Under the pieces are notes generated by a model. It saw only the letters and a program-made list of their open reading frames with translations, was not told where the DNA came from and did no database searches. Below, in pieces: positions 2,070 through 37,035 of a stretch of DNA of 64,000 nt. The first letter of the stretch is position 1; each line of letters starts with the position of its first letter. The position numbers were made by a program, and so were the translations under genes. Source of the stretch: a virus (lineage: Duplodnaviria; Heunggongvirae; Uroviricota; Caudoviricetes); IMG/VR virus record IMGVR_UViG_2681813233_000007. One strand, 5' to 3'.

Positions 2070-4017
2070 CAATCCTTTACGAATTAATATTCAGTCTACT
2101 TTTGCTGATACGATCCCCGGCTATATGCCAAGTCGCTGGTCTTCAGAAGAATTAAGCGAAGATGACCTGATTTTTGAGGCGGCGACCTTAGAAGATATTG
2201 AGCTTGCCTATATGGGCAATGAAATTCTGGTTGTGTCTGACGAAGCTATGTTTGAGTCCATAACTACAACCAGAATTCGGTTAGCTCAAACAATGCGAGC
2301 TTTCGTCCGTGCGCTGAATCGTGGCCTGAATGGTACGAATATTATGGCAGGGACTGATGAAGCTGGGACCGATGAAAATGGACGTAATTGTATTGGTGGT
2401 GCGATTATCGGTCGTGTACGTCGGGTAGCTAATATCCCTGTTTTGACCGCGCAGATACCGCTTACTGACGGGCAGAGTACAAGCATAATTTTCCACTCTC
2501 CAACAGCTGACGGGGCAAAAATAAAGAGTAACGACGAGCTTGTTGCATTTCAGTTTTTACTTAATAAGCGTAACGTAACTCACGTTGTCGCCCCGATTGG
2601 TGGGAGAGATGTTTCTTTAAGCCAGGTATGCCAGGCGCTATCTAATTTGATTGAGCGTAACAGCGAAAAATTTAAGAAAGCAAAAGAGCGCCAGGACAAA
2701 ATGAAGGCAGATATTGAGAGTTATCTCAATGAAGCAGATAAACTGGCAGAAGAACGGTCAATAATGATTGATCAGGTGGACGTTGCGCAACGTGGGCTGA
2801 CTGAAAAGCGTGCTGCTCTTACGGAGATGCAAAAAAAACTTGATGCCCAGAAAGCTATCAATGAGGAATTACAAGCAAAACGCGATAAATTGTTGTCTGC
2901 TAAAGGTGAAAAAACGAAAGAACGAGCGTTTAGTGACCAGCTGCGACATGTAAAACATAATCTTGCCATTGACGGAAAAACAGTGCTTGATAATGGCGCT
3001 GAAGTTAATTATGTCACGTCCGGCAGTGACAATTTCGTTACGATAGTAGCACCTGAAGGTAAATTCAGTATTGATGCCAGTGCTGTCAAAGGAGGCAGTT
3101 TGGCAGATGCTGCAACCAAATTACTTAAAGCCTACCGAGAGCATAACGCAGATAAATATAAAGTTGATGTGTTACCAGGCCAGTTGGAAGACTCCGAACC
3201 ACCACAGACAGACCCCGAAACGAACCCAGTATTACAACCAGAGAGCCAAGATGTAGGTGAATACCACTATGCACTTCAATCTCGCCCGGCTGGTGTTGGT
3301 GCTGTTCCGGATGGAAATAAAGCCGTGCTTGATCGTCCTGACCAGGCTGATCAGTATTACGAATATGCTCGTCACGGTATCATTACGTATGACCGTAAAC
3401 TGACAGATGAAGAAGTCAGCCAGTACGAGTTGCTTTATCTTCCTGATGAAGATGAGCTGAAAGATTTTGCAGGCCAATTGGTTGCGTCCAGCATGTCGAA
3501 ACATATTGATGGCTATGTGGACCTGTTTGGCAGTGACCTGAAAACATTCAAGGCGCAAGTGAAAATTCTTTTCCGCAAAGCGTTTCCAAACGTGGCGTAT
3601 CCACTTAGTGATGGGGAGAACCTTTTCATTATGGACGTGTATAACGCCCTTCAAAATCATTCAAGCGAAGTAAAAACAGAGCATGTGGTTGAGCCAGAAT
3701 CACAACCACAACCACAACCACAACCACAACCACAACCACAACCAGCACCAGAACAGGAGTCGGAGCCAGAAGAAGCGGGTGAATCAGCAAGTGAAGCTGA
3801 TCAGGAAGCAGATAAAGCGCTGGAGTACCTGAAATCCGTGCCGGAGCAGTTTACATCCCGCGATCTGACGGTCATCAGTGCTGAACTTGATCATGTGCAG
3901 GAAGCAGCAAACGCTCTAATCAGTGCAGGTCGATACGACGAGAACGAAGCCACTGTGGGTGCAGCAGTTGACTACCTGATCAATATTCTGGCTGAAATTC
4001 AGCAGGGAGGTGTTTAA
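2059..4017 (+). CDS. Large head-associated protein with (PQ)n linker, DarA-like by size and context
   Basis: ~650 aa ORF with GGAGGA RBS; size and position match the P1 darA operon; no catalytic motif recognised. Confidence 0.45.
   Translation, partial: SMINNPLRINIQSTFADTIPGYMPSRWSSEELSEDDLIFEAATLEDIELAYMGNEILVVSDEAMFESITTTRIRLAQTMRAFVRALNRGLNGTNIMAGTDEAGTDENGRNCIGGAIIGRVRRVANIPVLTAQIPLTDGQSTSIIFHSPTADGAKIKSNDELVAFQFLLNKRNVTHVVAPIGGRDVSLSQVCQALSNLIERNSEKFKKAKERQDKMKADIESYLNEADKLAEERSIMIDQVDVAQRGLTEKRAALTEMQKKLDAQKAINEELQAKRDKLLSAKGEKTKERAFSDQLRHVKHNLAIDGKTVLDNGAEVNYVTSGSDNFVTIVAPEGKFSIDASAVKGGSLADAATKLLKAYREHNADKYKVDVLPGQLEDSEPPQTDPETNPVLQPESQDVGEYHYALQSRPAGVGAVPDGNKAVLDRPDQADQYYEYARHGIITYDRKLTDEEVSQYELLYLPDEDELKDFAGQLVASSMSKHIDGYVDLFGSDLKTFKAQVKILFRKAFPNVAYPLSDGENLFIMDVYNALQNHSSEVKTEHVVEPESQPQPQPQPQPQPQPAPEQESEPEEAGESASEADQEADKALEYLKSVPEQFTSRDLTVISAELDHVQEAANALISAGRYDENEATVGAAVDYLINILAEIQQGGV
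3701..3742 (+). repeat. (CACAAC)x7 hexanucleotide tandem repeat encoding a PQPQ linker
   Basis: Seven perfect CACAAC units inside the DarA-like ORF. Confidence 0.9.
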
Positions 4018-4385
4018 TGACCATCTCTGTTTTAGACCGCCTGAAATTAGGTAAAGAGCTATCAGATCTAATGCAGGCGCAGAAAACTGCGCCAGTATTG
4101 CAACGCGTCACCATTGGTAAGCAGATTGTTGATGTGATGCTGAAATTGGGCCTGGGGACTGCCGCGCAACCGGCAGCGGAACCGCAACAACAGGCTGATC
4201 CTGTTGTAGATGAAGTCCCTAAGATAGTGACTGACTTCCTGGGCGGTGTGTTCACAAAGTCCACACAAATGGAATTTATTGATGCGCTGCGTGGGATCTC
4301 AAACTATGTTGGCGAGTTCCTTACGTTGGAGCAGGCTAAAGAGCAGACCATAAGCTGGGTGAAAGCTAACGGTTATGCCGGGTAA
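4017..4385 (+). CDS. Hypothetical protein (DdrA-like position)
   Basis: 122 aa; ATG overlaps the upstream stop. Confidence 0.4.
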   Translation: MTISVLDRLKLGKELSDLMQAQKTAPVLQRVTIGKQIVDVMLKLGLGTAAQPAAEPQQQADPVVDEVPKIVTDFLGGVFTKSTQMEFIDALRGISNYVGEFLTLEQAKEQTISWVKANGYAG

Positions 4386-10425: not shown

Positions 10426-11132
10426 TGGAAATCTGCATTCTTGAAAAGCCATCAATGACCAGCATTGAGATCGCGGAGCTGGTGGGAAGTCGCCCGGATA
10501 ACGTTAAACGCACTATTGAACGCTTGAGTAAATCAGGTGTTATTCCACTTCCTCCAATGGAGGTTTCCGAAAATATCAATAACTTAGGATTTAAAGTTAA
10601 AAATTCACACTACGTCTTCGAAGGCGAGCAAGGCAAGCGTGACAGTATCATTGTCGTTGCGCAGCTTTCTCCCGAATTCACCGCCCGGCTGGTGGACCGC
10701 TGGCGCGAACTGGAAGAACAAGTACGCCAGCCGTTGACCGAAATAGAGATGATCGCCGCAATGGCTGCAAATGCAGTTCAGCAGCAAAAGCGGCTTCATG
10801 TTGTTGAGTCAAAGGTTAGCCAGGTGGTAGAAACCGTCGAGCAAATCAAGAAGGGCAACATGCCGGAAGGCTACATTGGCTACCGCCAGCTGGCGGCGAA
10901 ATGTGGCCTGACTGAAGCCAAATGCCGAAACCTGGTCAACGCTTACCGGATTCCCACCGATACACATGAGTTTTTAACTCCAGAGGGGGTATTGTCGCGT
11001 CGTTCCATCGTGGCCTTATCTCCCTTCATGAATGCTTTTAACCGGATGATGTCGGAGGCTGAACACCGAGGAAAACGCTGGTATCACCCCAAAATGGGGC
11101 AATTCCAGGTGATCGGTTGGGGAGGTGAGTGA
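10425..11132 (+). CDS. Antirepressor-like protein (Ant/KilA-type), copy 1
   Basis: 235 aa; N-terminal MTSIEIAELVG..DNVKRTIE shared with the 313-aa paralog at 49660. Confidence 0.55.
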   Translation: MEICILEKPSMTSIEIAELVGSRPDNVKRTIERLSKSGVIPLPPMEVSENINNLGFKVKNSHYVFEGEQGKRDSIIVVAQLSPEFTARLVDRWRELEEQVRQPLTEIEMIAAMAANAVQQQKRLHVVESKVSQVVETVEQIKKGNMPEGYIGYRQLAAKCGLTEAKCRNLVNAYRIPTDTHEFLTPEGVLSRRSIVALSPFMNAFNRMMSEAEHRGKRWYHPKMGQFQVIGWGGE

Positions 11133-11329
11133 TGGACATCATGCAGGCGGTAAAAAAAATCAGGGAAGGACATGCTGAAGTGTGCCGCCGTAAAGCATGG
11201 AGTGTTGGTGTATGGGCCTGGCCTGATAATTACTCTACTACCGGATGGTTTTGTATTAATGGACTCCAGATCCGGGAAGTTGATTTATCGACGGCTGATA
11301 TAGTCGGTAATGATTGGATCGTGACTTGA
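11129..11329 (+). CDS. Small hypothetical protein
   Basis: 66 aa ORF overlapping the ant stop; weak. Confidence 0.25.
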   Translation: MMDIMQAVKKIREGHAEVCRRKAWSVGVWAWPDNYSTTGWFCINGLQIREVDLSTADIVGNDWIVT

Positions 11330-11996: not shown

Positions 11997-14900
11997 TTGG
12001 ACAAACTACTTTATTCAATCAGTGAAGCCTCCAGCTTAGGCGAACTGATTGAAATTGTTAGTCGGTTGCATAAATTACGTGCTGTTGCGACCTTTGGCGT
12101 CAGGAAAGCCGATGGCGTCAGTATTCAGAAAACACGTCGTGCAGCAAACAATGCCGCAGTAAATCTTCTTAATTCCCTTCCGCCCGGCTTCGATGGGGCG
12201 AAATTAACTGACGAACAACGTCAGATTCTTGCCGGGTATACCGGTGAAGGCGGCCTGACAGATGGTGAGGGCAGCCAATACGAATACTACACGCCACAGT
12301 TTATGGCTGAAGGTATATGGGATCTGTTTGCTGACTACGGTATTGATGGCGGGCACGTACTGGAACCATCAGCGGGCACAGGTATTTTCCAGGAGACAAA
12401 ACGGCAGGGCATGATAATGACCAGCGCCGAACTGTCTCCGATTTCTGGTCGAATAAACCAGCTTTTGCACCCGGAAGACGATGTGAATATCGGGGCGTTT
12501 GAGGCGCTGGCGGCGAAAGATGCAATGTATGACCACGCTGTTGGTAACGTACCGTTTGGTGAAGGGCGTTCCGGCGTCGCCGGTCTTGATCCGGCATATG
12601 CAAACGAGAAGAACGTTGGCAATTACTTTGTGCTGCGCACGATCGACAAGGTTAAGCCTGGTGGGCTTATCGTATTGGTGGTGCCGAATGGCATGACTGA
12701 TGGTACGAAATACAAAAAATTGCGCGATAAAGTCAGCCGTAAAGCGGAATTTTTGGGCGCGCATCGTATGCCTTCCGGTACGTTCAGTGAATCAGGTACA
12801 GATACCGTGGTGGACGTATGGGTATTGCGTAAACACCCGGAAGCCTTCCTGGAGATGATCCCCGATACGGATGATTCGACGCTCAAATCGGCAAACGTCC
12901 TTTGGGATACCTTCCTCAAAGGAAAATGGTTTACAACCGAAGGGAAGCGATTTGTTTACGGCGACATGGAACGTACCAGCTTCCGCAATACCCTGGTGGT
13001 GAAAAAAGACGGTCGTGTATCCAATGAGTCGATGAAAACCGCGCTATCTCGTCGCTTTGATAGTCGCATCAATTGGGATTTGCTCGGCGTAACTACTCAG
13101 GCATGGCAGGGCGCGAAAGTGGGCGATAAACGCCTTGTAGGCGGTATCTGGCATGAGTTTGATGGTCTGAAATGGGTTAAGGACACGACAACCAAATCCT
13201 CCGCGCTTGATGTAAGTCGATATGGTGTTTCGACGTTTGGCGATCTGCAGATCGCGTTCCAGTCAACAAACGGGATTCTGGCTTTGTCATGGGACCAGAT
13301 ATCGGCGATCGCGTCCGACTATCCATCGGTTGTCAGTGATGAAGTGGCAGCAATGATTCGCTTTGCTGGCAAGCAGCGAGAAAAAGACAGGGAGCGCGTT
13401 ATGCGCGGTGCACTGATAGGTCAGTTGATCAACAAGGCACTTGATTTGCGTAACCTGGGGGTGAACGTTGATGACAAACTGGCAGATGCATCCCGCCTGG
13501 CGGCAGCAGAAGTTGCGAAGTATGGACCACCGCACGCGATTAAGCTGAATGGGCTTGCTGAAGCTGGCGCTAAAAACTGGATGACGTTCACTGGCAATGT
13601 GAAACAGGATGGTTCCACTTCTGACCTTCTGGCAGGGCGACTTGATGTAACGGATGGTGCTGCCGGTATTGACTTTACGCGTCCTGAACAAGTGATAGCA
13701 CATCTTTTTAGTGATGTAGCCCTTAATCCTATAACGCTGGGCGACTTTCGTGAGGCGTTTGCTGGTGAACTGCCAGAGGACGACGACGCGGCCCTTGAAT
13801 ACCTGGCGAAATTTGATGATATCGCTATTGATGGGTATGGCTGTCTGCTGCCGATGGACCGCGCCACCAGCGGCGATGTTGCAACCAAAACAGCACTGCT
13901 GGTGGGTTGGCGTGATGCGTCAACAGGTGAGCAGAAAGCGAACTTTGAGCGTCAGTTGGCGAAAATCGAAGAGAAACGCATTTTCACGCCACTAAATAAA
14001 GTCACCGTTAATCTGAACGCCCGCTGGCTGGATCGCCGCTTGATAAAAGAGTTCCTGGCAGAGCAGGGCTATGACGAGTTTAAGTACACTGAACCTGATC
14101 TGAAGGTCGTCGATGGCATTCTGGTATCTCCGGACGATTACGAAGGTAAGGACGGGGTATTTACCGGCTATCAGCTACGAACCGTAAACGGCAAAAACGG
14201 GAATGAGTTCAAGAAGGCCAACAATAAAGACGGCTTCCTGAACCAGTTAGAAAACTACCTGAACGGTGTTAAACCGCGTGGGCAGAACGCTAACGAGTAC
14301 CTGGATAAAATTGCTCAACTGGAAGTTAGCTTTAACGACTGGTTACGCACTCACCCGCAGGCTGATCAGATAGCCCGCGAGTATAACGACGCATTCAATG
14401 GTTTCATTCCGTTCACGCATTCTGACGCACCGCTTGGCCTGGAAGGGATTAGTGGAAAGCGCATTCCTCTGACTTATCAGAATGAAGAAGTTCGGCGCTT
14501 GTCAGAAGATGGGCGCGGCATCATGGGATTTGGTACCGGGCTGGGTAAAACCACGACCGCGCTTGCGCTTGAGGCGTATAACTTCGAAACAGGTCGCACT
14601 AAACGCACGTGTATTGTTGTTCCGAAGGCGGTTTATCAGAACTGGTATCACGAGGCACAGAGTTTCTACAGTGCTGATGCCTTCGCCAATATGATGTTTA
14701 TCGGTTTGGATGAAGTTCGTGATGACAGCGGAAATATTCTGACCGCGCCGGTGCTTGATGAAAATGGCGAACCACGCCTCGACAGTAACGGGCAGCCTCT
14801 TACCAGAAATGTTGTGAAAGAGTCCGCCAGCGCCGTTATCGTTCAGCGCATGAACATGATCCCGTCGTCAAATTGGCGAACGGTCATCATGACAAAAGAA

Positions 14901-17900
14901 CAATTCGCGTCTATCCCGCTACGAGAAAAAACCATCGAGGAGAACTCACAGCAAGCTGTCTTTAATGCTGTGGAAATGGGGCGTCTTGACCTGGCGTCTG
15001 GCAAACACCGTGATGCACAGAAGAAGAACAAGATTAAGGATCAGGCCGCGAATACCGGTACAACGAAGAAGCAGAATATCCCGTACTTTGAGGATATGAA
15101 CTTCGATAGCGTGATTGCCGACGAGGGGCATAACTACCGCAACTCCTTTAATGCCGGGCGTGAAGCGGGACAACTGGCATATTTGCCTAACCCGGCAGTA
15201 TCCAAGATGGCCCGCGACATGGCTGTAAAAGCTGCGTACATGATGAAACGCAACAACGGACGTGGTGTAGTCATGCTGACGGCAACTCCGCTGGTGAACA
15301 GTCCGATTGATGCCTTCAACATGCTGTCTACTGTCATTCCGCAGGAAGAGTGGATGCGCATGGGCATCATTACGCCTGATGATTTCGTTCGTGTGTTTGG
15401 CAAAACAGCCACAGTTCAGGTCCAGAAAATTTCCGGGGAAGTGGAAGAGAAGCAGGGGCTGGTGGGCTTCCAGAACCTTGACGGCCTGCGTGGTATTTTC
15501 CATCGTTGGACCACTCTGAAGACTGCTGCAGATGTCGGAGCGACGGTTAAAATTCCCGACATCATTGAGAACACCTTGCAGATCCCGATGACAGGGGAGC
15601 AGGAGACTGCTTATGAAGAGCTTCGTAAGCGTGCTCAGGAGTTAAGTCGCAATGATGAGCTGACAGTCGATGAAAACGGGCATATCACTAACGACAAACC
15701 AGATGATTTCATCTTCTCCATCATCCGTGACATGGACAAGGTTGCTATAGACCCGGATCTGTATGCCAGTGCGATTACATTCCAGTTCCCCGTTGAGCTT
15801 GCAGACCAGGTAAAAGCTATTGCTGATGCCTTGCCAAAAGTAGCTGGCGGTAAAGTGGCAGATGATGTTGATGAGGCCGAGGAAGACGGCGCTGGCGGGC
15901 TGGTCAGTACGCGTACCAGCAAGGTAGTGAAGACCGCTTTTAGTGAACATCCGACGCATGTTGAAATACGTGCCAGCATTGAACTGGAAGCTGAAATACT
16001 GAAGGCCATTGCGGCTGCCGGTATTGATATGCAGCAGGTATCGCACCCCATCCCGCCGAAGTATGCCGCGCTGATCGAAAATCTTCGTGAAGGTCTGAAG
16101 AACGGTAAGCAGATCGTCTTTATTGATGAAAAAGCCCAGCACCAGAAGCTGCGCCGTATTATCGCCAGTGCACTGCAAATGCCGGAGCAGGAGATTGGCA
16201 TTATCAATGCGACGACAGTTAGCCAGGCTGGCGGCATCAAGCTGAAGAAGGTGAATAAGCCGACCGAACCTACTCCAAACAAAAACGGTGAATACAAAGA
16301 AGGGGCATGGGAAACCTACTACAGCAAACTTGCACAATATGAGGATTATCTCTCAGCTAAAAATGATGCTGGCCTTGAGGGCATGGAAGGTATTGCCGCC
16401 GACTATAACGAAGGTCGCACGCGCATCATAATCTGTAACAAGAAGGCTGAAGTAGGTATTAACCTGCACATCGGGACAACCGATATCCATCACCTGACAC
16501 TACCCTGGACACCAGCCAGTATCGACCAACGAAATGGGCGCGGTGCGCGCGTAGGTTCACCGCAAGAAAAGGTCAATGTTCACTACTATTGTGGCAAAGG
16601 CACATTCGATGACTTCCGTCTGGATACGCTGAAACGTAAGAAAGACTGGATCAAGATGGTGATGACATCCGACATGTCAGAGATCGCCAATGGTGATGCG
16701 GATGATGCTGATGAACGCGCCATTATGCTGGCGGCAAACCCGGAAGAACGCCGCGCAATCATGGCTCGCCAGGCGCAAGTGCGTGAAGAACGTCTGAAAC
16801 TGAAAGCACAGCGCGAGGCCAACAATGCTCTCGATATCTACCTGAAAGCGGCAAACGCCGCCGGAAAAGATATCGGCATGATGGAGACAGAACTGAAAAG
16901 CGCGATGGAACAGATAGAGTATTACCAGCGCAATCTTGACGACCTGATAAAAGCGGGTACGAACAGGAATGGGCAAAAATACGCGCTTGAGCAGTTGAGT
17001 AGCTACAGAAAACGTGCGCGGGTGCTGCGGTTTGCGATCACCAGGGCAAAAGACGCGGATACCATAATGAAACGCTCTCGTGGTGATGTGGAGCGCGCTA
17101 TTAAGTCTGGTGTGCTGGATATCAGTATCGATGTTATTCAGAACCCACAGGAATATATGCGCACTGACAAGAATATCCTGTTGCATAAAGGTAGTTATTA
17201 CCGTGCAGTCATTGATGATCGCGAAACAACAGCGATTGTCCGGGTGGAAAAAATTGACGGTGAAAAAGCACAATACATCTGTCGTATCGCCTGGCTGGAT
17301 AGAGCAAGTCGTTACGCTCGATCACCGGGGTCAATCGTTACATTGCCGTTTGACTCTGTGATTGAAGCGGTAACTTTTGAAGAGGGGGTTGCTGAATCGC
17401 GCGCAACGGCTGCGCGTGGTGTTCAGTGCCACCAGCTATCAACAATACTTACTCGCGATCAGTTCTATGATGCTATTCGCAATGGGGTAATGAATGTTAT
17501 TGCTGGTAAACCTGGTAATGCATGGGGCGGTGGATCAGCTATTAAATACTGGGCATATCGCACAGAAGATGGTCAGATCGCGCTGTCATCGGCCTATGAT
17601 GGCGTGATAGGCCAAAAAATCGGGCGAGCATCGGATATAGCACCTGAACGATGGATATATCCTGATGGCAACGACGAGGCGCTGAAGCGTGAAGTGGCAA
17701 AAATACAAGCCAGTGATAACCCGCTGAATATCGTGGACGGAGAGGGATTCCTCCAGGCATTGTATGGGTATGATTACATCCAGGGAATGCAGGCATGGGG
17801 CGCACAGGCAACGATGGATGATGTTGCCAAGGAGTTCGAAAACTGGATGGCTGGGCGTGGTCTGTCAGGTCGTTCGCTTAATAAAGTCACTTCTGAAGAT

Positions 17901-20212: not shown

Positions 20213-20413
20213 TTGCGTTTACTTAACGTGGCAGAACTTATCCCTGCAGGAACTAATGCTATCGCTCGTCGTCGCTCATGGCAGCAGGCTCTATGTATTG
20301 AGATCTCGAAACGTATCAATGGAAGTTTTGAAGCTCGCAATATTGTTACTGGCGATAAGGTTCACATAACCCCGGAAAGTGCAAGCGCTGATGATTGGGA
20401 GTTTGTGCATTGA
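20213..20413 (+). CDS. Small hypothetical protein
   Basis: 66 aa ORF in operon context. Confidence 0.3.
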   Translation: MRLLNVAELIPAGTNAIARRRSWQQALCIEISKRINGSFEARNIVTGDKVHITPESASADDWEFVH

Positions 20414-25112: not shown

Positions 25113-25688
25113 ATGTTAATGGCGAACGATAACGCATATGCAGAAGAAGATCTCATTTTGAGTGACTTCATAGGGAAGCGGGAACGCTGGACCCAAAAGC
25201 GAGAGGAACTTTACGCCTCATTAGTTCGCAAAGGCGTCAATATCGAAACCGCACAGAGCGGCGATATGACAGTGGTAAGCGTTGGATTGCACGGTGTAAG
25301 CGTGTCAGCAATCAATCATGAGCCATACGTTGCGTTATCCGAGTCAATGGTAAGGTTAGTTAAGTTCCTGAAGTACACAGAAGCGAATAATGTAATCATT
25401 GGCAAAAAGAATATCCCTTTTTCCTCGGCTTTTTACTGGATGATGAAAGGGCTTGATGCCCGGCGGACATCATGGCCTAAAGGGAGCTATATATCGATGT
25501 TCCGTGGCAGCATTGGCAGCAAAGAAAAGCTCTTCGAATTCTTGCCGGAAGAGGCATTCGATATTGTGGAAGGGTGCGATGTGATGGTGATGCCTCGCCT
25601 GGTAATGATGAATGGGGATTTACAGGCGCAGACAGACTGGTTTGCAACTGGTGTGGATATTATCGCGACTGACTGGGAGGCTTTCTGA
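25113..25688 (+). CDS. Hypothetical protein with C-terminal DUF2829-like segment
   Basis: 191 aa; C-terminus ...FYWMMKGLDARRTSWPKG...DWFATGVDIIATDWEAF resembles the DUF2829 pattern seen in the 33335 ORF. Confidence 0.4.
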   Translation: MLMANDNAYAEEDLILSDFIGKRERWTQKREELYASLVRKGVNIETAQSGDMTVVSVGLHGVSVSAINHEPYVALSESMVRLVKFLKYTEANNVIIGKKNIPFSSAFYWMMKGLDARRTSWPKGSYISMFRGSIGSKEKLFEFLPEEAFDIVEGCDVMVMPRLVMMNGDLQAQTDWFATGVDIIATDWEAF

Positions 25689-29477: not shown

Positions 29478-30515
29478 TTACCAGAGCTTCGCGGCGTACT
29501 GCGTTTGGGGGAATGTGTATCCGTAACGTTCTTCGATTGCTTTGCCGTATTTTTTACGAGCTTCATTCAGTTTAATGCCGGTCAGGTCGTCTCCAGAGGC
29601 CATCATTACGTCTAACAATTCCAGATCCATTTTATCCAGCCTTGCCATTGCTTCACGTGATGTACGTATCTTACGTTCAATGATATGGCGAATAGCCGGA
29701 TCGGCATCCTCCAGCATCTTAGCGGATTTCTGCTTAAGGCTTTCATTGCGAATATCGATGTTCCTTAAGATGTACGACTTCGCAACGTAGCTTGGCTGGT
29801 GTTTTTCCAGGTCACGAACACGATATAAGTTAAAATCGCCGAGAAGGCTGCAAGGTACCGATTCGACGCCAGAATAAATTGTAATGCTCCGGCGTTCACC
29901 AACATTATTGACAACGGGGATCGTTGTCTTCGGTAGTCTTGCGAAAACCAATGCGCCATGTGCGCCAACTCTAAAGCGAGAAAGGGCATTGCTGCCTTCG
30001 ATGTTTGTTGTCAGCACAACATCTGTATATGCCTCTTTACGCGCCCGGTAGATCTCGCCTTCAGGCTCAGCTTCAAAGAAGCGCTGTTCTTCTTCAAGAG
30101 CACCTACGATTTGAGAAAAAACCCTATTTTTCAGGCTTTTCTTTATGATTTTGTCGTATTTTTTTAGCAATTGTTCACGTGTAAATGTACGTGTTGTTGT
30201 AGCGCTTTGCACAACGACATGCGTGCTTTGATTGGTGTCCTCAATGATGAATGGGATCGGAGAATATACAGACTCAACAATGTTCGACGCTTTGCCGTCG
30301 GCATCGCGGCACATGTCAACGAAGGCTTTCCATTCAGCAAGACATTTTTCAGCTTCTTCTAATATGTTTTGGTCATGCGTTAATGCAACATGGCGGAATT
30401 CCTCGCCAGCATAACTGGTATCATGGAAAACAGAGTTTGCGACCACCAGCTCTTTCCACCGTTCAGCGGTTTGCAGGAACCGTTTGTACTCTTTCTCGAT
30501 CGACTTCTTACTCAT
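29478..30515 (-). CDS. Putative primary repressor (C1-like, by position)
   Basis: 345 aa, convergent with pacB and next to the lox-type site as c1 is in P1; operator-like motif 12 bp upstream of its start. Confidence 0.4.
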   Translation of the reverse strand: MSKKSIEKEYKRFLQTAERWKELVVANSVFHDTSYAGEEFRHVALTHDQNILEEAEKCLAEWKAFVDMCRDADGKASNIVESVYSPIPFIIEDTNQSTHVVVQSATTTRTFTREQLLKKYDKIIKKSLKNRVFSQIVGALEEEQRFFEAEPEGEIYRARKEAYTDVVLTTNIEGSNALSRFRVGAHGALVFARLPKTTIPVVNNVGERRSITIYSGVESVPCSLLGDFNLYRVRDLEKHQPSYVAKSYILRNIDIRNESLKQKSAKMLEDADPAIRHIIERKIRTSREAMARLDKMDLELLDVMMASGDDLTGIKLNEARKKYGKAIEERYGYTFPQTQYAAKLW

Positions 30516-30526
30516 TATTCCTACTC

Positions 30527-30544
30527 GATTTAGTTTTCTAACAT
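30527..30544 (-). promoter_or_regulatory. Operator-like motif ATGTTAGAAAACTAAATC at the c1-like start
   Basis: Motif family member overlapping the presumed promoter/RBS of the c1-like gene, suggesting autoregulation. Confidence 0.5.
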
Positions 30545-30725
30545 AAAATTACTATGACAAATTTATGTCGAATAACAGAGTGAGTAAAGGATCGAACTGT
30601 GATTTTTTGTCATCAATTTTAGAAAACCAACCGTAGAAACCACACTTCGCAAATTAAAGACCATGAAGGCAACGTGTTACTGGTCATCATCAATCTATGA
30701 TGGATTTAAAAAAATCGGCATTTTA

Positions 30726-30757
30726 TAACTTTAAATAATTGGCATTATTTAAAGTTA
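30726..30757. other. rox recombination site (14-bp inverted repeats, 4-bp spacer)
   Basis: TAACTTTAAATAAT-TGGC-ATTATTTAAAGTTA; reverse complement of the rox sequence as I recall it; 150 bp upstream of the Cre-like gene. Confidence 0.85.
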
Positions 30758-30909
30758 GGCTATAATCATGTGTAGATGAACAGTGTTGACATCACTGAAA
30801 ATACGTGCCTCGAATCAAAGGCTTGTATTTTGAAAATTAACTTATAGCTACCCTGTCATTTTTATATTTTTCGCGTAGCGTCATCTGTATATAGAGGTGT
30901 AATAGTTTC

Positions 30910-31938
30910 ATGAGTGAATTAATTATCTCTGGCAGTTCCGGTGGTTTTCTGCGCAACATTGGCAAAGAGTACCAGGAAGCCGCAGAAAACTTTATGCGGT
31001 TCATGAATGACCAGGGGGCTTATGCGCCGAATACTCTGCGCGACCTCCGGTTGGTGTTTCATTCCTGGGCGCGCTGGTGTCACGCTCGCCAGCTTGCCTG
31101 GTTTCCGATCTCACCAGAAATGGCCCGCGAGTATTTTCTTCAGCTGCATGATGCCGATCTGGCTTCGACCACCATTGATAAGCACTACGCCATGCTGAAC
31201 ATGCTGCTTTCGCATTGTGGCCTTCCGCCACTTTCGGATGATAAAAGTGTTTCTCTGGCTATGCGGCGCATCCGGCGCGAAGCGGCAACTGAAAAAGGCG
31301 AACGAACAGGCCAGGCTATACCGCTTCGGTGGGACGATCTGAAACTGCTCGACGTCCTGTTGTCCAGGTCAGAACGGCTGGTGGACCTGCGCAACCTGGC
31401 TTTTCTCTTTGTTGCATACAATACGCTGATGCGTATGTCGGAAATATCGCGTATTCGTGTAGGTGATCTGGACCAAACAGGTGACACTGTCACGCTACAT
31501 ATTTCACACACGAAGACAATAACGACCGCCGCCGGGCTTGATAAGGTGCTTTCCCGTCGCACTACCGCTGTGCTGAATGACTGGCTGGATGTTTCCGGGC
31601 TTCGCGAGCATCCTGACGCTGTGCTGTTCCCGCCGATACACCGTAGCAATAAGGCCAGGATCACGATAACGCCCCTTACTGCACCTGCAATGGAGAAAAT
31701 ATTCAGCGACGCCTGGGTGTTGCTGAATAAAAGAGATGCTACGCCAAACAAAGGAAGATACCGGACGTGGACCGGGCATAGTGCACGCGTCGGGGCCGCT
31801 ATTGATATGGCTGAAAAGCAGGTGTCTATGGTGGAGATCATGCAGGAAGGAACCTGGAAGAAACCGGAAACACTTATGCGGTATCTTCGCCGTGGCGGCG
31901 TGTCTGTGGGGGCTAATAGCCGCCTGATGGATTTGTAA
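30910..31938 (+). CDS. dre: Tyrosine site-specific recombinase Dre (Cre family)
   Basis: 342 aa; collinear with Cre (WFP..PE, SVSLAMRRIRRE, IRNLAFL..YNTL.R..EI.RIRV.D, W.GHSARVGAA.DMA). Confidence 0.9.
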   Translation: MSELIISGSSGGFLRNIGKEYQEAAENFMRFMNDQGAYAPNTLRDLRLVFHSWARWCHARQLAWFPISPEMAREYFLQLHDADLASTTIDKHYAMLNMLLSHCGLPPLSDDKSVSLAMRRIRREAATEKGERTGQAIPLRWDDLKLLDVLLSRSERLVDLRNLAFLFVAYNTLMRMSEISRIRVGDLDQTGDTVTLHISHTKTITTAAGLDKVLSRRTTAVLNDWLDVSGLREHPDAVLFPPIHRSNKARITITPLTAPAMEKIFSDAWVLLNKRDATPNKGRYRTWTGHSARVGAAIDMAEKQVSMVEIMQEGTWKKPETLMRYLRRGGVSVGANSRLMDL

Positions 31939-31955
31939 ATTAAATTTCTAACACA
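31938..31955 (-). promoter_or_regulatory. Operator-like motif GTGTTAGAAATTTAATTT
   Basis: Motif family member immediately after the dre stop, upstream of the 32012 operon. Confidence 0.5.
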
Positions 31956-32011
31956 TCTTTTTAGATTAACATCTTTGCTGTAAAGTACCCTCGCCTATTT
32001 AGGAGGGTGCT

Positions 32012-32356
32012 TTGCAGAGTCAAATCACGGAATCAAGACGCTTCAAGGTGGATGGTTACACCGTAACCTTCGCCGCTGGTGTTAAGAACAGTCATGCTGT
32101 CGTTGTGTTCGGCATCATGACCGGGCTTGAGGCCGTCCCTGTGTTTACCCTCGAAAAAAACTGGCGAAATCTGGAGGAAGCAGAAAGCTACGTCCGGAAA
32201 GTAACCATCATTGCCGCCGAAAAACTCCTGGCCCACTATCAGGAAAATTATCGCACTATGGTCGAGAAGATTAATCTCGCTTTCACTCGCCCCACTACCG
32301 GCTTTATTGCACCGGATACTAATGCAGGTCGATATCCTGCAAGGGGGCGTCGGTGA
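32012..32356 (+). CDS. Hypothetical protein
   Basis: 114 aa, first gene of a tightly coupled 6-gene operon. Confidence 0.4.
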   Translation: MQSQITESRRFKVDGYTVTFAAGVKNSHAVVVFGIMTGLEAVPVFTLEKNWRNLEEAESYVRKVTIIAAEKLLAHYQENYRTMVEKINLAFTRPTTGFIAPDTNAGRYPARGRR

Positions 32357-32829
32357 AAACTTATTACCCATCTCTGAATTGTTACCCGTCTTCCTATCCA
32401 GAATTATCCGGGAAGCTGTTAGCTCTATTAGCTAAAGCACCTACGGAATGGTTTAAGCCAGTCGTTATCAATCCACACTTCCTGGATTACGGAACTGTTC
32501 GCACTCGTAACGAACTCAAAAACCTACTGGCGCATGGATTCATTCGACACCGTGCCGGGAAAGGCTATCAGTTAGCGATTGCGCCAGAAGAGGCCGTGCG
32601 GCTATTCGCATATCGTGACAGCCAGACAAAAGCTCGGGTAATAGCTCAAATACTTCATAACGGCAGCACCTATGCCCGCCAGTTTGGCGGCGACACGTCG
32701 CAGTTCTTGCGGGCGGTGCGATCGCTGGAGGAGCAAGGAGTTATTGAAAGTTCCTGTCTTCCTGTTCCTACCGTTCCACATATCAAACGTCGGGTTTACA
32801 CCTTCACGCAGAGAGCTAAAAAACAATGA
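32353..32829 (+). CDS. Hypothetical protein, possible winged-helix
   Basis: 158 aa; 4-bp overlap with the upstream ORF. Confidence 0.4.
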   Translation: MKTYYPSLNCYPSSYPELSGKLLALLAKAPTEWFKPVVINPHFLDYGTVRTRNELKNLLAHGFIRHRAGKGYQLAIAPEEAVRLFAYRDSQTKARVIAQILHNGSTYARQFGGDTSQFLRAVRSLEEQGVIESSCLPVPTVPHIKRRVYTFTQRAKKQ

Positions 32830-33320
32830 TTTACGTAAAAGTGAAACGCCTACATCCGGCAGCAAAACTTCCAGCTTATGCCACCTCCGGATCGGCGGCG
32901 ATGGATTTTGAGGCTGTTGAAATAAAACCATGCGTCGATAGCAATGGTGCAATTTCCTCAAGCTGGTGGGTGTACACCGGACTGGCTATGGAGATCCCGC
33001 CCGGCTGGTGTCTGAAACTCTATCCGCGCTCCGGATTGGGCTGCAAAAAACATACTCGCCTGGCTAACTGCGTAGGAATTATCGACTCCGATTATCGCGG
33101 TGAAATCATGGCAAAACTGATTACTGATCCCGGCGGGGAAGGCGTTTGTCTCAAGCCTGGAATGGCTGTCATGCAAGGCATTTTTGAGCGTGTTGAACAA
33201 GTCTCACTAGTCGAGGTTGAGGAACTCAACGAAACGGAACGTGGTGCTGGTGGCTTTGGTAGCACATCGGAAGACCACTTTGAAATCAAGCGCACACCGC
33301 TTCAGTACGCAAAGTTTTAA
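32826..33320 (+). CDS. dut: dUTPase (trimeric dUTP diphosphatase family)
   Basis: Motifs PRSGLG, GIIDSDYRGE and C-terminal RGAGGFGSTS. Confidence 0.75.
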   Translation: MIYVKVKRLHPAAKLPAYATSGSAAMDFEAVEIKPCVDSNGAISSSWWVYTGLAMEIPPGWCLKLYPRSGLGCKKHTRLANCVGIIDSDYRGEIMAKLITDPGGEGVCLKPGMAVMQGIFERVEQVSLVEVEELNETERGAGGFGSTSEDHFEIKRTPLQYAKF

Positions 33321-33334
33321 GCAGAGGAAAGGCT

Positions 33335-34036
33335 ATGAATTACATGACAACGAAAGAGCTTTTTAAGTTCCTTCCCAAATACAAAGCTCACAAAAACGTT
33401 AGTGCATCGAAAATCAAAAATGTTGTTATTTTCGGAGTAACTGCTTCCCCACTTTGGGGCTGCATCGAACTCGTTGAACCAAAAGGGGCAACAGTTTGTG
33501 TTGACGCAATTTTTTTACAAAAACACCGACCAAAAACTGGCGGGTATCTGATCGTTTATGAAAACGGTTATCTGTTCTATGCCCCGGAGAAACCATTTGA
33601 GCAATGCTATGGCCTGGTTAACGACGCCTCCGAAAATGGGGTATCGCTCAGCATTGAAGGTCACAATGGGGTGACATTCATTACAGCCAGGGACGTAACT
33701 ATTTCTGCTGGCGGTATCGCTACTCTACAAGAAGAAATCGACCTTGAAGCAGCCGACTTTTCTGACGCGCTGATGTGGCTGAAGGATGGCAAGAAAGTTG
33801 CTCGACGCGGGTGGAACGGCGAAAACCAATTCTGCTGGCTGGTTCCTGACAAACAGGGTGCTTCAAGACTAACCCCTATAAAACATGCCGCAAACGGAGA
33901 GCTTGAAATCAATTTCGACTCTCCTCTTGCTCCTTATGGTGCGCATTTCGTTTTGAAAAATGCACAAGGTGTAGTTGTTCCATGGATGCCTTCTGTAGGT
34001 GACCTGCTGGCATGTGACTGGTTTGTAGTGGAGTGA
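33335..34036 (+). CDS. Two-domain protein with C-terminal DUF2829 (Tad2-like) domain
   Basis: C-terminal ~90 aa ALMWLKDGKKVARRGWNG...VPWMPSVGDLLACDWFVVE fits the DUF2829 pattern as I recall it; N-terminal ~140 aa unknown. Confidence 0.5.
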   Translation: MNYMTTKELFKFLPKYKAHKNVSASKIKNVVIFGVTASPLWGCIELVEPKGATVCVDAIFLQKHRPKTGGYLIVYENGYLFYAPEKPFEQCYGLVNDASENGVSLSIEGHNGVTFITARDVTISAGGIATLQEEIDLEAADFSDALMWLKDGKKVARRGWNGENQFCWLVPDKQGASRLTPIKHAANGELEINFDSPLAPYGAHFVLKNAQGVVVPWMPSVGDLLACDWFVVE

Positions 34037-34042
34037 TTTAAC

Positions 34043-34849
34043 GTGGAAAATACTAAAGCAATTCAATACCGCTTGCGTAATGGCCTGCTGGTGGCTGTTA
34101 ACGCCGACATGTCACTGCCGTTTGACACGATTGAACGCACCATAATGACGTATCTCGGCTTTAATGAAGAACTGAATGAAGAGCATGGCGTAGCTATATG
34201 GAGTGATGCAGACAGCGGCGTTCGTCGTTACATCACCGCCAGGGGCAAAGACTACTCTCTGGAAGAACTGTTTGCCCTTGCGCAGTCTTTCGAATGTGTA
34301 GCATTAGACCTGTTTAATGATCCTGCTATAGCGCAACGACTTATACGCGAGCTTGGGCTATCCGTTACACCAATTATCTTTAAAAATGGCAGCCTGACTG
34401 GCACATGGCGCGTAGAACGCATATCAAACTACCTTCCATATAACCGACAGTTAAATGGAGTAATCTCCGGCGTTAATCAGCCCGTAGCATGTGAAAATGT
34501 AAACCTGGTTGTCGCTGTTTTGGCAACCGCATGTCGTGTTATCGGTTTGGCTAAACAGGCATTTATTCATTTCCCAAATGGTGCAGAAGGTAGCGCAGAG
34601 ATTATCGCGTGTGATTTCGAATTTACCTGGATGCTACGCGAATATCTGGACCAAACAGTATTCCGTGCCGAAGAACTGGATATGTATATCACGTCAACGA
34701 TTCCAGACGATGTGCGAGCTGAAGCAATCGCTACAGCCAGGGCGAAATGCCGTGCGGCGATTGCAGAACAGGCCAAAGAAGAACAGTCCGATGAAGTCGC
34801 GGCAGATGTGGAGGCAGAGGTAGCGGAGGATGCTGATGCTGACGCCTAA
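34043..34849 (+). CDS. Hypothetical protein with acidic C-terminal tail
   Basis: 268 aa; C-terminus EEQSDEVAADVEAEVAEDADADA. Confidence 0.4.
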   Translation: MENTKAIQYRLRNGLLVAVNADMSLPFDTIERTIMTYLGFNEELNEEHGVAIWSDADSGVRRYITARGKDYSLEELFALAQSFECVALDLFNDPAIAQRLIRELGLSVTPIIFKNGSLTGTWRVERISNYLPYNRQLNGVISGVNQPVACENVNLVVAVLATACRVIGLAKQAFIHFPNGAEGSAEIIACDFEFTWMLREYLDQTVFRAEELDMYITSTIPDDVRAEAIATARAKCRAAIAEQAKEEQSDEVAADVEAEVAEDADADA

Positions 34850-35936
34850 AAACATCACCGAATTACCAGAGTGGAGAGAGCTGGTAAGCAAATATAGCCA
34901 TGACTGGGCATTAGCAGCAGAAGAGTTGATGGGTGTTAAGTTAACCCACCAGCAAAAGCTAATTGTTGAGGCGATTCAACAAAAAGGTTCAGCAGTCAGC
35001 GTCACCACTCCTGAAGGGATAGGCCAAAAGACGGTTATCGCTATAATTAGTATTCTTTATACAATCCTGATGCCTGAGTCTAAAACGGTTATTGTTTCCC
35101 CAAAGTTCTATAATTGTCGCAGGCAAGTTATCCAATACATAAGTACGTATTGGGATAGAGTCAGTAACAGAATCCCATTGCTGGGAGAATATTTTAAAGT
35201 CGATGGAAACGGCATCAATCATCGTTACCGGGAATATTGGGGCTGCGAAATTAAGCCATATCACCGAAATTATGAGGAAGGTTTCGGTGGATATTATGCT
35301 GAACATCTTTTAATCATTGTTACGGAGGCGGCTCTTGCTGGCGATCGGCTATTCAGCATGTTAAGAGCATCGTTAGTAAGTGACGATTCACGTATACTTT
35401 TAATGTCCGCTCCTTCAGAGGAGGAGCATGGACACTTTTACGATTCCCATCATGGTCGTGCTAAATCAGAAGAAAATCCATGTGGTATTTATACAGCCAT
35501 CAAGCTGAACGCAGAAGATACCCCCATTATTTCTCAAGGTTATCTTGATAACATTGCAGAAATATATGGTGGTAAAAACAGCGATTACTACCGTCGTATG
35601 ATTCTTGGTGAGTTTCCTGGTATTAGGGAGGCTGTTCTTGAATCAGATATGCCGAAGACAATGCGCTTTTCGATGCCTGATGGTAGTGAATGGATAATGC
35701 CATTACGAGTGATAGCCCGGCATCATGCACAGCACCACGCCAAAAAACATGGCGTTACAACATTGGAGTGGTTGAAATCGCACACCATTCCACTCTTCAC
35801 TGCAGATCACAATGCTATCGTTGAGTGGGCAAAAACAATTCCGTGGGAGAATGTTGCTGAATACGCCCACATGCTAAAACCGCCGAAAGACAGGCAAGAA
35901 ATTAGCTGGCTGACAGCAGAAAAAATCATTGAGTGA
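34830..35936 (+). CDS. Terminase large-subunit ATPase-domain paralog, truncated, degenerate Walker motifs
   Basis: Collinear with the PacB-like N-terminal ~360 aa (GHFYDSHHGRAK vs GYFYDSHHSQAK) but Walker A is GIGQKT and Walker B is LLIIVTEAA; no C-terminal nuclease domain. Confidence 0.6.
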   Translation: MLMLTPKNITELPEWRELVSKYSHDWALAAEELMGVKLTHQQKLIVEAIQQKGSAVSVTTPEGIGQKTVIAIISILYTILMPESKTVIVSPKFYNCRRQVIQYISTYWDRVSNRIPLLGEYFKVDGNGINHRYREYWGCEIKPYHRNYEEGFGGYYAEHLLIIVTEAALAGDRLFSMLRASLVSDDSRILLMSAPSEEEHGHFYDSHHGRAKSEENPCGIYTAIKLNAEDTPIISQGYLDNIAEIYGGKNSDYYRRMILGEFPGIREAVLESDMPKTMRFSMPDGSEWIMPLRVIARHHAQHHAKKHGVTTLEWLKSHTIPLFTADHNAIVEWAKTIPWENVAEYAHMLKPPKDRQEISWLTAEKIIE

Positions 35937-35943
35937 TAGTAGG

Positions 35944-35974
35944 AAGCCCGCCTGGTTGAGCGGGCTTCTTTTCA
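35944..35974. terminator. Bidirectional rho-independent terminator
   Basis: GAAGCCCGC-ctggttga-GCGGGCTTC followed by TTTT, between the terminase paralog and convergent doc. Confidence 0.65.
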
Positions 35975-36352
35975 AATATTGGAACCATATAGTTCACGTA
36001 GTTTTTCCGCTACTGAAGATACGGGGATTTCACCAGTTGCAGCCCCCACCGCAAGTTCCACCAGCACGGGAGAATCATATACCTGTATACCGTTACGGCG
36101 TAGAAATAGCAGCGCACTGTTTAGCGCGGTACGCTTATTGGCATCATTGAATATATGCCCTCTCGCAGTAGCCACCAGGTAGGTTGCGGAGACTTCGAAA
36201 AGGTCGGTGATCTCTTCGTAGGCAACTCTGGCCTGAACTCTCCCGATAATGGCCTCTGCCCTACCCGGATCTGACATTCCCGGCAGGCCGCCGTAGCGGC
36301 TTATATTCGCATCATGAAGCGCAATAAGTTCTTCCGGTGATATATGCCTCAT
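35972..36352 (-). CDS. doc: Doc toxin (Fic-family kinase)
   Basis: 126 aa, near-identical to P1 Doc as I recall it ([22 protein letters not shown]...). Confidence 0.95.
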
Positions 36353-36573
36353 TATCGGTTAACCAGTTCCTTGTTGGTGGAGTCCAGGGTGTCAAACAGG
36401 GATGCAAATTCAGCATCCAGCGCCGCCTTTTTGTAGGCTTCGAAAGTAGCCTTGCTGACAATTACTGCTGGTTCACGGCCTCTGCGGGTGATTTCAACCT
36501 CTTCCCCGGCTTCAACATTGTTGAGCAATTCAGAAAGGTTGCCGCGCGCGGTACGGAAGTTAATGGACTGCAT
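36352..36573 (-). CDS. phd: Phd antitoxin
   Basis: [15 protein letters not shown]... matches P1 Phd as I recall it; overlaps the doc start. Confidence 0.9.
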
Positions 36574-36645
36574 AAACACCTCGTGTACTCGTTATGTGTA
36601 CACAATCATAAACTTCACAGGCATAAAGCACCAGCACTTTGCAGC

Positions 36646-37035
36646 TTAAATGACCGGACAATCATCAAACTCCCCACTTCGGGCATCATTGATGACATGA
36701 GTGATCACACCAAAAACAGCATTACTACCCGTGTAACCATCGTCATCTACTGGTAACGCCTCTTTCTTCCCGGTGCTTAAATCCTCCAGGTGCTGGCGCG
36801 GATACTTTCGGTATCTCTTTATGCGATATTCACCCTCCATAGCGCACACAAGCAGCGAACCATCAACTGGAGTAAGCGAAGAATCAACCACCAGCAAAGC
36901 ACCCTGCAATATTCCCTCACGGTGATGGCTGTCTGCCGCCCGCATGAAGTATGTCGCTGATGGATGCCTGATTAGTTGCTGATCAAGAGAAATTCTGCTT
37001 TCAACATAGTCCGCCGCAGGAGAAGGGAAGCCCAT
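36646..37035 (-). CDS. humD: HumD (UmuD-prime homolog, S24 peptidase fold)
   Basis: 129 aa; gene order humD-phd-doc as in P1. Confidence 0.8.
   Translation of the reverse strand: MGFPSPAADYVESRISLDQQLIRHPSATYFMRAADSHHREGILQGALLVVDSSLTPVDGSLLVCAMEGEYRIKRYRKYPRQHLEDLSTGKKEALPVDDDGYTGSNAVFGVITHVINDARSGEFDDCPVI

Follow-up and report, generated by a model that had tools for sequence, protein, structure and literature searches.

Tad2 sponges are an established means by which phages disarm Thoeris, CBASS and Pycsar, and the locus analyzed here raises the question of what it may mean when a Tad2-like domain carries a long N-terminal extension. The gene lies at positions 33335–34036 (plus strand, stop codon included) of a 64,000-nucleotide stretch of viral DNA, referred to below as the window, and is an ATG-to-stop open reading frame encoding 233 residues. 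Its product is identical to QMC09264.1, which is labelled "DUF2829 domain-containing protein" in record CP057047.1. A preliminary description, made from the nucleotide sequence alone, had assigned the C-terminal ~90 residues to DUF2829, the family of Tad2, and the remainder to an unknown N-terminal domain of ~140 residues; the two strings that it quoted, ALMWLKDGKKVARRGWNG and VPWMPSVGDLLACDWFVVE, are both found in the product, at residues 145–162 and 215–233, respectively.

The DNA of the window belongs to an E. coli phage-plasmid of the D6/P1 type. Over positions 31000–37000, where the gene lies, it matches plasmid pRHB39-C21_3 (CP057047.1) at 100% identity and phage D6 at about 96%, the latter with gaps. 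When the CDS of CP057047.1 are placed on the window by their coordinates, they translate cleanly only in the central ~43 kb (~2 to ~45.3 kb), and plasmid and window are therefore not collinear outside this part. In the plasmid record glnS (glutamine-tRNA ligase) is annotated at 14045–15706, adjoining a large Dam-family methyltransferase gene, and the putative mapped end of this region falls near 63.6–64.0 kb of the window, outside the collinear part. Searches with tblastn give matches to the protein in 281 plasmid records, with a coverage of at least 80% in 237, and in 98 phage records; the plasmids carrying the gene are nearly all non-mobilizable and, among the matches listed, about 75–115 kb in size. 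A homologue search yields 130 relatives, nearly all in elements of Escherichia, Salmonella, Shigella and Klebsiella.

The assignment of the C-terminal part is confirmed by a Pfam match to PF11195 at residues 141–232 (E = 2.7e-21, 76.3 bits against a cut-off of 25 bits) that spans positions 2–73 of the 73-position profile. The Tad2-like domain as delimited here comprises residues 136–233 (33740–34033, plus strand). Among PDB sequences phmmer retrieves ModTad2 (9eib, E 1.6e-12) as well as 8v3e, SptTad2 (8wjd), HgmTad2/AcrIIA7 (8kbi) and SPO1 Tad2 (8sme). Published pocket residues were placed on the protein through HMMER alignments, and the main ligand contacts of SPO1 Tad2 and HgmTad2 are all kept, in agreement with the preliminary assignment. 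In the GWNG loop (residues 159–162, 33809–33820, plus strand), W160 and N161 correspond to W25 and N26 of SPO1 Tad2, and W160/N161/G162 to W21/N22/G23 of HgmTad2. In the segment W217-M-P-S220-V-G222-D223 (33983–34003, plus strand), which matches W73, S76, T78 and D79 of SPO1 Tad2 with Gly in place of Thr, residues W217, S220 and D223 correspond to W73, S76 and D79 of SPO1 Tad2 and to W87, S90 and D93 of HgmTad2. The adenine-contacting Thr (T78 in SPO1 Tad2, T92 in HgmTad2) is not kept and is replaced by Gly222, at a position occupied by Ser in ModTad2 and by G, D, A or T among relatives. Further out, SPO1 I63 corresponds to L207, a conservative change, and T65, D67 and H71 to N209, Q211 and V215, which are non-conservative. 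Thus the main contacts are identical and the adenine-side and water-coordinating residues are changed. Since the peripheral pocket positions vary among Tad2 proteins having different ligands, the ligand cannot be read from them, whereas membership in the family is still well supported. Taken together, these alignments support a Tad2-family domain with predicted sponge activity.

Comparison with the solved family members brings out both what is shared and what is particular to this protein. Family, fold and main pocket residues are common to SPO1 Tad2 (gp34.65; 8sme, 8smf, 8smg) and HgmTad2/AcrIIA7 (8kbi), from which the protein differs by Gly222 in place of Thr, by an unrelated insertion, and by the N-terminal module discussed below, which neither of them has. 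ModTad2, also called MoTad2, from a Myroides odoratus prophage (9eib, 8v3e), is a stand-alone protein of 88–89 residues, whereas the protein studied here adds about 135 N-terminal residues and reads PSVGD where ModTad2 reads PSVSD. The insertion, residues 171–203 (33845–33943, plus strand), lies between β2 and the next core strand, is hypervariable, and is longer than and unrelated to that of ModTad2. ModTad2, the closest solved relative, holds His-ADPR in its main pocket and cUMP or cCMP in a second one, and in HgmTad2 and MoTad2 it is the insertion region that forms the second pocket, for a cyclic dinucleotide or cUMP. In the AlphaFold2 model of the 233-residue protein, computed as a monomer (pTM 0.42), the insertion is of low confidence.

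A scan of the whole window with HMMs for further copies of the N-terminal module, of Tad2 or of the sponge family Sequestin returned only the two Tad2-like reading frames already known. The second of these encodes 191 residues (25113–25688, plus strand) and had been described as ending in a similar pattern, an observation that holds, with PF11195 matching residues 103–190 above the cut-off (39.1 bits, E 1.1e-9). By its sequence this second protein is Tad2-like but much more divergent than the 233-residue protein: SWPKG stands in place of GWNG, the key Asn being replaced by Pro, so that the phosphate-binding Asn is lost, and the C-terminal motif retains W, T (for S) and D. It has no match among PDB sequences, and its C-terminal part is modelled by AlphaFold2 with pLDDT below 40. 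Its N-terminal ~90 residues may tentatively be given a dsRBD/HicB-like α-β3-α fold. Its distribution does not extend beyond the D6 lineage: D6 is the only phage record that has it, and it forms 10 protein clusters in a large collection. Two small reading frames on the plus strand, 11132–11329 (65 residues, phrog_7385) and 20213–20413 (66 residues, phrog_7206), both belonging to PHROGs of unknown function, have in common a helix followed by an "RRxxW"..."DW-x-V" pattern that resembles a minimal DUF2829; the former has a sub-threshold match to PF11195 (E 0.017, 16 bits) that runs the full length of the profile, and neither has a match in the PDB. The two could be Tad2-like proteins of minimal size, or the likeness may be due to chance.

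The preliminary description was right that an extra N-terminal region is present but not that it is a single domain, as it consists of a β-barrel of ~90 residues followed by a segment of ~40 residues. The barrel is modelled confidently at residues ~10–95 (pLDDT ~90). We identify this part as a Dec-like OB-fold module (residues 10–95, 33362–33619, plus strand; about 90 residues) joined to a variable linker (residues 96–135, 33620–33739, plus strand; about 40 residues), the kinship with Dec being a putative and distant one. A profile built from 38 OB domains matches Dec in the PDB at E 0.0011, and the alignment brings together the motifs P-x-x-GGY and F-E-x-x-Y, which the OB-fold barrel of phage L Dec (6E3C) has in common with the OB family. 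In contrast to the family, Dec is without most of its invariants (HK, KH-P, Y-x-DGY-x-S-x-SP); it carries a C-terminal trimeric spike, whereas no spike is found in the protein studied here; and it is a capsid protein, whereas genes of the OB family sit among early and accessory genes. The linker is modelled with pLDDT below 50 and shows no significant similarity, its best PDB match being a VgrG repeat at E 0.37 and its PHROG search being empty. A Dec-like or tail-fibre-like trimeric β-helix was considered for this segment and was rejected as unsupported on these same three results.

The OB family itself is large. With residues 1–105 as query against 1.84 billion representative sequences, phmmer finds 1,712 proteins at E ≤ 1e-3. 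Among the best 149 of the 1,712, 51 are no longer than 125 residues, and the stand-alone form, of about 90 residues, is common. The family is marked by the motifs LPxYxxHKxVxAxKI and KHxPxxGGYxVxYxDGYxSxSPxxxFExGY. Scans with Pfam, NCBIfam and PADLOC assign the module to no family, and its only matches are to PHROGs of unknown function. Literature searches found nothing characterizing the module and turned up only a sentence in the Methods of PMC12393519, by which sponge homologues with "PF21825 or PDB 6E3C" domains were dropped from the survey. As far as that Methods section goes, the exclusion of homologues bearing 6E3C implies that the fusion of the OB module to sponges had already been encountered there, without study.

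Over 144 representatives, 28 positions of the OB module are conserved at 75% or more, a number that falls to about 24 at a threshold of 90%, and the residues in the stricter class include His, Lys, Asp, Ser and several Tyr. The allele in the window matches 22 of the 28. It departs non-conservatively at N77 (D in 92% of representatives), F81 and A83 (S in 99% at each position) and C91 (G in 99%), and conservatively at I73 (V in 98%); E85 stands where 81% of representatives have A. Similar losses of conserved residues are seen in other enterobacterial phage-plasmid alleles, and the OB module of the window allele may be partly degenerate, relaxed or re-purposed. Elsewhere in the family, OB modules occur in tandem, either inside a single protein or in the form of two neighboring genes (3627–4255 of the sampled locus L016; proteins P0125, P0127, P0129, P0133 and P0135), and P0125, of 1,243 residues, has eight stretches matching the module. 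This tandem arrangement hints at an oligomeric working form.

The proteins to which the OB module is fused are informative as to what it may do. In a set of 145 representatives, the Pfam domains that accompany it are Tad2 in five cases, Acb4 (PF13876) in four and Sequestin (PF21825) in three, with the Acb2/Tad1 hairpin in one strong and one weak case, and DUF4406, DUF5662, RyR, AlpA and DUF551 in one case each; the identification of PF13876 with Acb4 and of PF21825 with Sequestin follows PMC11722364 and PMC12265669. A sample of 80 separately drawn IMG/VR loci contains 33 OB reading frames with room for a partner (32 of at least 150 residues), and the Pfam partners there are Tad2 (six), Acb4 (four), Sequestin (two), the Acb2/Tad1 hairpin (two) and DUF4406 (one). 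Custom HMMs resolve the architectures in this sample as OB-Tad2, OB-Acb4, Acb4-OB, OB-Sequestin and OB-Acb2. In the two samples the partners recognizable by Pfam thus belong almost only to four unrelated sponge families. Sponge families account for 14 of the 33 fusions as against 2 of the 141 reading frames lying within two genes of an OB gene (one Tad2 and one Sequestin; Fisher p = 5e-10), and the remaining neighbors encode SSB, DUF1064, HNH, HTH, resolvase, Thy1 and similar proteins. The finding that the fusion partners, unlike the flanking genes, are biased toward sponges suggests that the OB module is possibly a new signal-binding or sponge-accessory module. The long partners are mostly without a Pfam family, about 60 segments being singletons, and the fusion of the module to many unrelated, unannotated partners means that it could also be a generic adaptor. 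Fused double sponges have been described (Acb4-Tad2 of Pasteurella phage Pm86, Tad2-Sequestin and Sequestin-Acb4; PMC12265669) in which Tad2 is likewise linked to a second small module, but there both halves are proven sponges, whereas the OB half of the present protein falls outside the proven sponge families. Sequestin was found precisely through its fusion to Tad2 and Acb4 (PMC12265669).

Natural alleles show which parts of the protein are held constant. The Tad2 core is the best-conserved region, with a mean pairwise identity of 0.87 in a set of 17 close alleles and of 0.74 in the full set of 30 homologues; over the same two sets the values are 0.62 and 0.43 for the OB part, 0.68 and 0.29 for the linker, and 0.39 and 0.25 for the insertion at residues 171–203. 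The beginning of the Tad2 domain, IDLxAADFSDALMWLK, is invariant or nearly so in all 30 homologues, and the insertion is of three unrelated types among the close alleles, a turnover which, judged from these sequences, fits a shifting ligand specificity. The corresponding gene of phage D6, orf114 (YP_009914791.1, 146 residues), occupies the same locus directly downstream of dut but has lost the OB core: its first 20 codons are kept, and an in-frame deletion of 237 nt follows (window 33396–33632 compared with orf114 at 2594–3034 of the D6 locus L002), with the junction at a short A-run. The linker and the type of insertion also differ between the two. Between the window and D6, the block coding for the beginning of the Tad2 domain shows 100% DNA identity, and the flanking linker and insertion are divergent, so that the two alleles show a mosaic pattern. 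A natural fusion of dUTPase and Tad2 (P0059, 241 residues) has dUTPase in place of the OB module and retains Tad2, and some relatives carry Sequestin at the C-terminus, giving OB-Tad2-Sequestin. The D6 deletion and the P0059 fusion indicate that, in that lineage at least, the Tad2 gene can be maintained without the OB module. The dUTPase gene of the window (dut, 32826–33320) lies directly upstream of the gene at 33335–34036, and in the Bacillus phages JL and Shanette a Tad2-like match lies beside or overlaps the dUTPase gene; this linkage between dUTPase and Tad2 could be recurrent or coincidental.

In the window the gene is part of a run of genes on one strand that overlap or are separated by short distances, namely dre, which encodes a tyrosine recombinase, two further small reading frames, dut, the OB-Tad2 gene, an isaA-like gene and a reading frame of 366–368 residues. 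A sigma-70-like promoter, TTGGCA-16-TATAAT with 11 of 12 matches (30739–30766, plus strand), lies upstream of dre and is the only promoter-like site found on the plus strand in a scan of 30400–36400, and a terminator-like hairpin (35950–35965, plus strand) directly follows the final gene of the run. Genes for head, portal, tail and lysis functions are found in other parts of the window, away from this run. The position of the gene in the dre-dut operon under a promoter of the sigma-70 type suggests that it is expressed early or constitutively, probably not together with the virion genes, and stand-alone OB genes are likewise surrounded by small genes of the early or accessory kind. Just upstream of dre lies the rox site on which Dre acts (taactttaaataattggcattatttaaagtta, 30725–30766), which overlaps the promoter-like site. 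The downstream co-transcribed genes encode the isaA-like protein (phrog_2326, 34043–34849) and the protein of 366–368 residues (phrog_5902, 34830–35936), for neither of which Pfam gives a family; the phrog_5902 protein is weakly similar to the ATPase of the terminase large subunit (PHROG 2, E 1.6e-10). The P1 C1 operator consensus (ATTGCTCTAATAAATTT) has no match anywhere in the window at up to three mismatches, which fits an immunity of the D6 type, unlike that of P1, the D6 repressor being different.

These observations can be brought together in a model in which a D6-type phage-plasmid encodes a two-module anti-defence protein. The product would be made early or constitutively from the dre-dut operon, and its Tad2 module (residues 136–233) would, by homology, assemble as a homotetramer. 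We infer that the pocket formed by W160, N161, W217, S220 and D223 would hold a signal made by a TIR protein, of the gcADPR, His-ADPR or N7-cADPR class, and that its capture would prevent Thoeris-type effectors from responding; an additional pocket contributed by the insertion at residues 171–203 may accept a cyclic nucleotide. The OB module (residues 10–95), carried on a flexible linker, would be an independent add-on that phages have repeatedly joined to sponges, and it most likely would bind a further small-molecule signal or otherwise help sequestration. We place at roughly 0.6 the probability of the main reading, that the gene provides from a non-late operon a Tad2-type sponge which sequesters a TIR-derived signal of the ADP-ribose type and whose OB add-on is tied to sequestration. 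The further proposal that the Dec-like OB module (about 85–95 residues) itself defines a new and very common family of phage proteins that bind or cleave immune signals is put forward tentatively, as something that may well turn out otherwise; on that view its many unannotated partners would hold further anti-defence domains yet to be discovered.

It is possible, if on balance doubtful, that the OB module is a passive scaffold, serving as an oligomerization, solubility, stability or localization tag, and that the Tad2 domain carries all of the anti-defence activity. The diversity of the fusion partners, most of them unannotated, and the attachment through a flexible linker would be expected of such a tag, as would the retention of Tad2 both where the OB core is deleted, in D6, and where it is exchanged for dUTPase, in P0059; the erosion of otherwise invariant OB residues throughout the enterobacterial phage-plasmid clade points the same way. 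However, a passive tag would not usually be conserved as strictly as this module, with about 24 positions at 90% or more over 144 distant representatives; many members of the family exist as stand-alone proteins of about 90 residues, and nearly all partners with a Pfam name are sponges, all of which argues against a mere tag. The putative distant kinship with Dec also raises the idea that the OB module docks the protein on the capsid or another virion surface, as in phage L, and displays the Tad2 domain there. This we regard as very improbable, because the gene lies in the dre-dut operon outside the head module, 80 viral homologues adjoin replication and early genes (SSB, HNH, HTH, resolvase) and not capsid genes, and neither pLDDT nor the PDB search reveals a Dec-like trimeric β-helix in the linker. 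Moreover, D6, an isolated phage grown on E. coli C600, is without the OB core, and a sponge on the exterior of the capsid would stay outside the cell.

A different kind of objection concerns the Tad2 domain, as DUF2829 might have another role here, for example as an anti-CRISPR protein, as the AcrIIA7 label would suggest, or as a toxin. The names in the databases lend themselves to this view, the PDB entries of HgmTad2 being titled "Inhibitor of Type II CRISPR-Cas system" or AcrIIA7 and some relatives bearing the name "MW1434 family type I TA system toxin". Such a role is nevertheless hardly to be expected, given that the main Tad2 pocket residues are conserved and that NCBIfam (E up to 1) and PADLOC scans of both Tad2-like proteins of the window and their neighbors returned nothing relevant. 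The reading as a Tad2-type sponge with an OB add-on tied to sequestration is therefore the one that we retain.

Part of this reading is not new. A 2025 preprint reports the DefenseFinder system "Tad2 AcrIIA7 (anti-Thoeris)" in 93% of D6 and 56% of P1 phage-plasmids, and together with the DUF2829 label assigned by PGAP these matches mean that the Tad2 call was already known. What this analysis adds is the arrangement OB-linker-Tad2 and, more importantly, the finding that the OB module is repeatedly and specifically associated with sponges of four unrelated families. If the OB module does bind or destroy an immune signal, it would constitute an extra sponge family with more than 1,000 members, and it would provide a sequence handle to new anti-defence domains among its orphan fusion partners. 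The allelic series found in E. coli phage-plasmids, comprising the full-length protein, the OB deletion of D6, the dUTPase fusion and the three types of insertion, would offer ready-made constructs.
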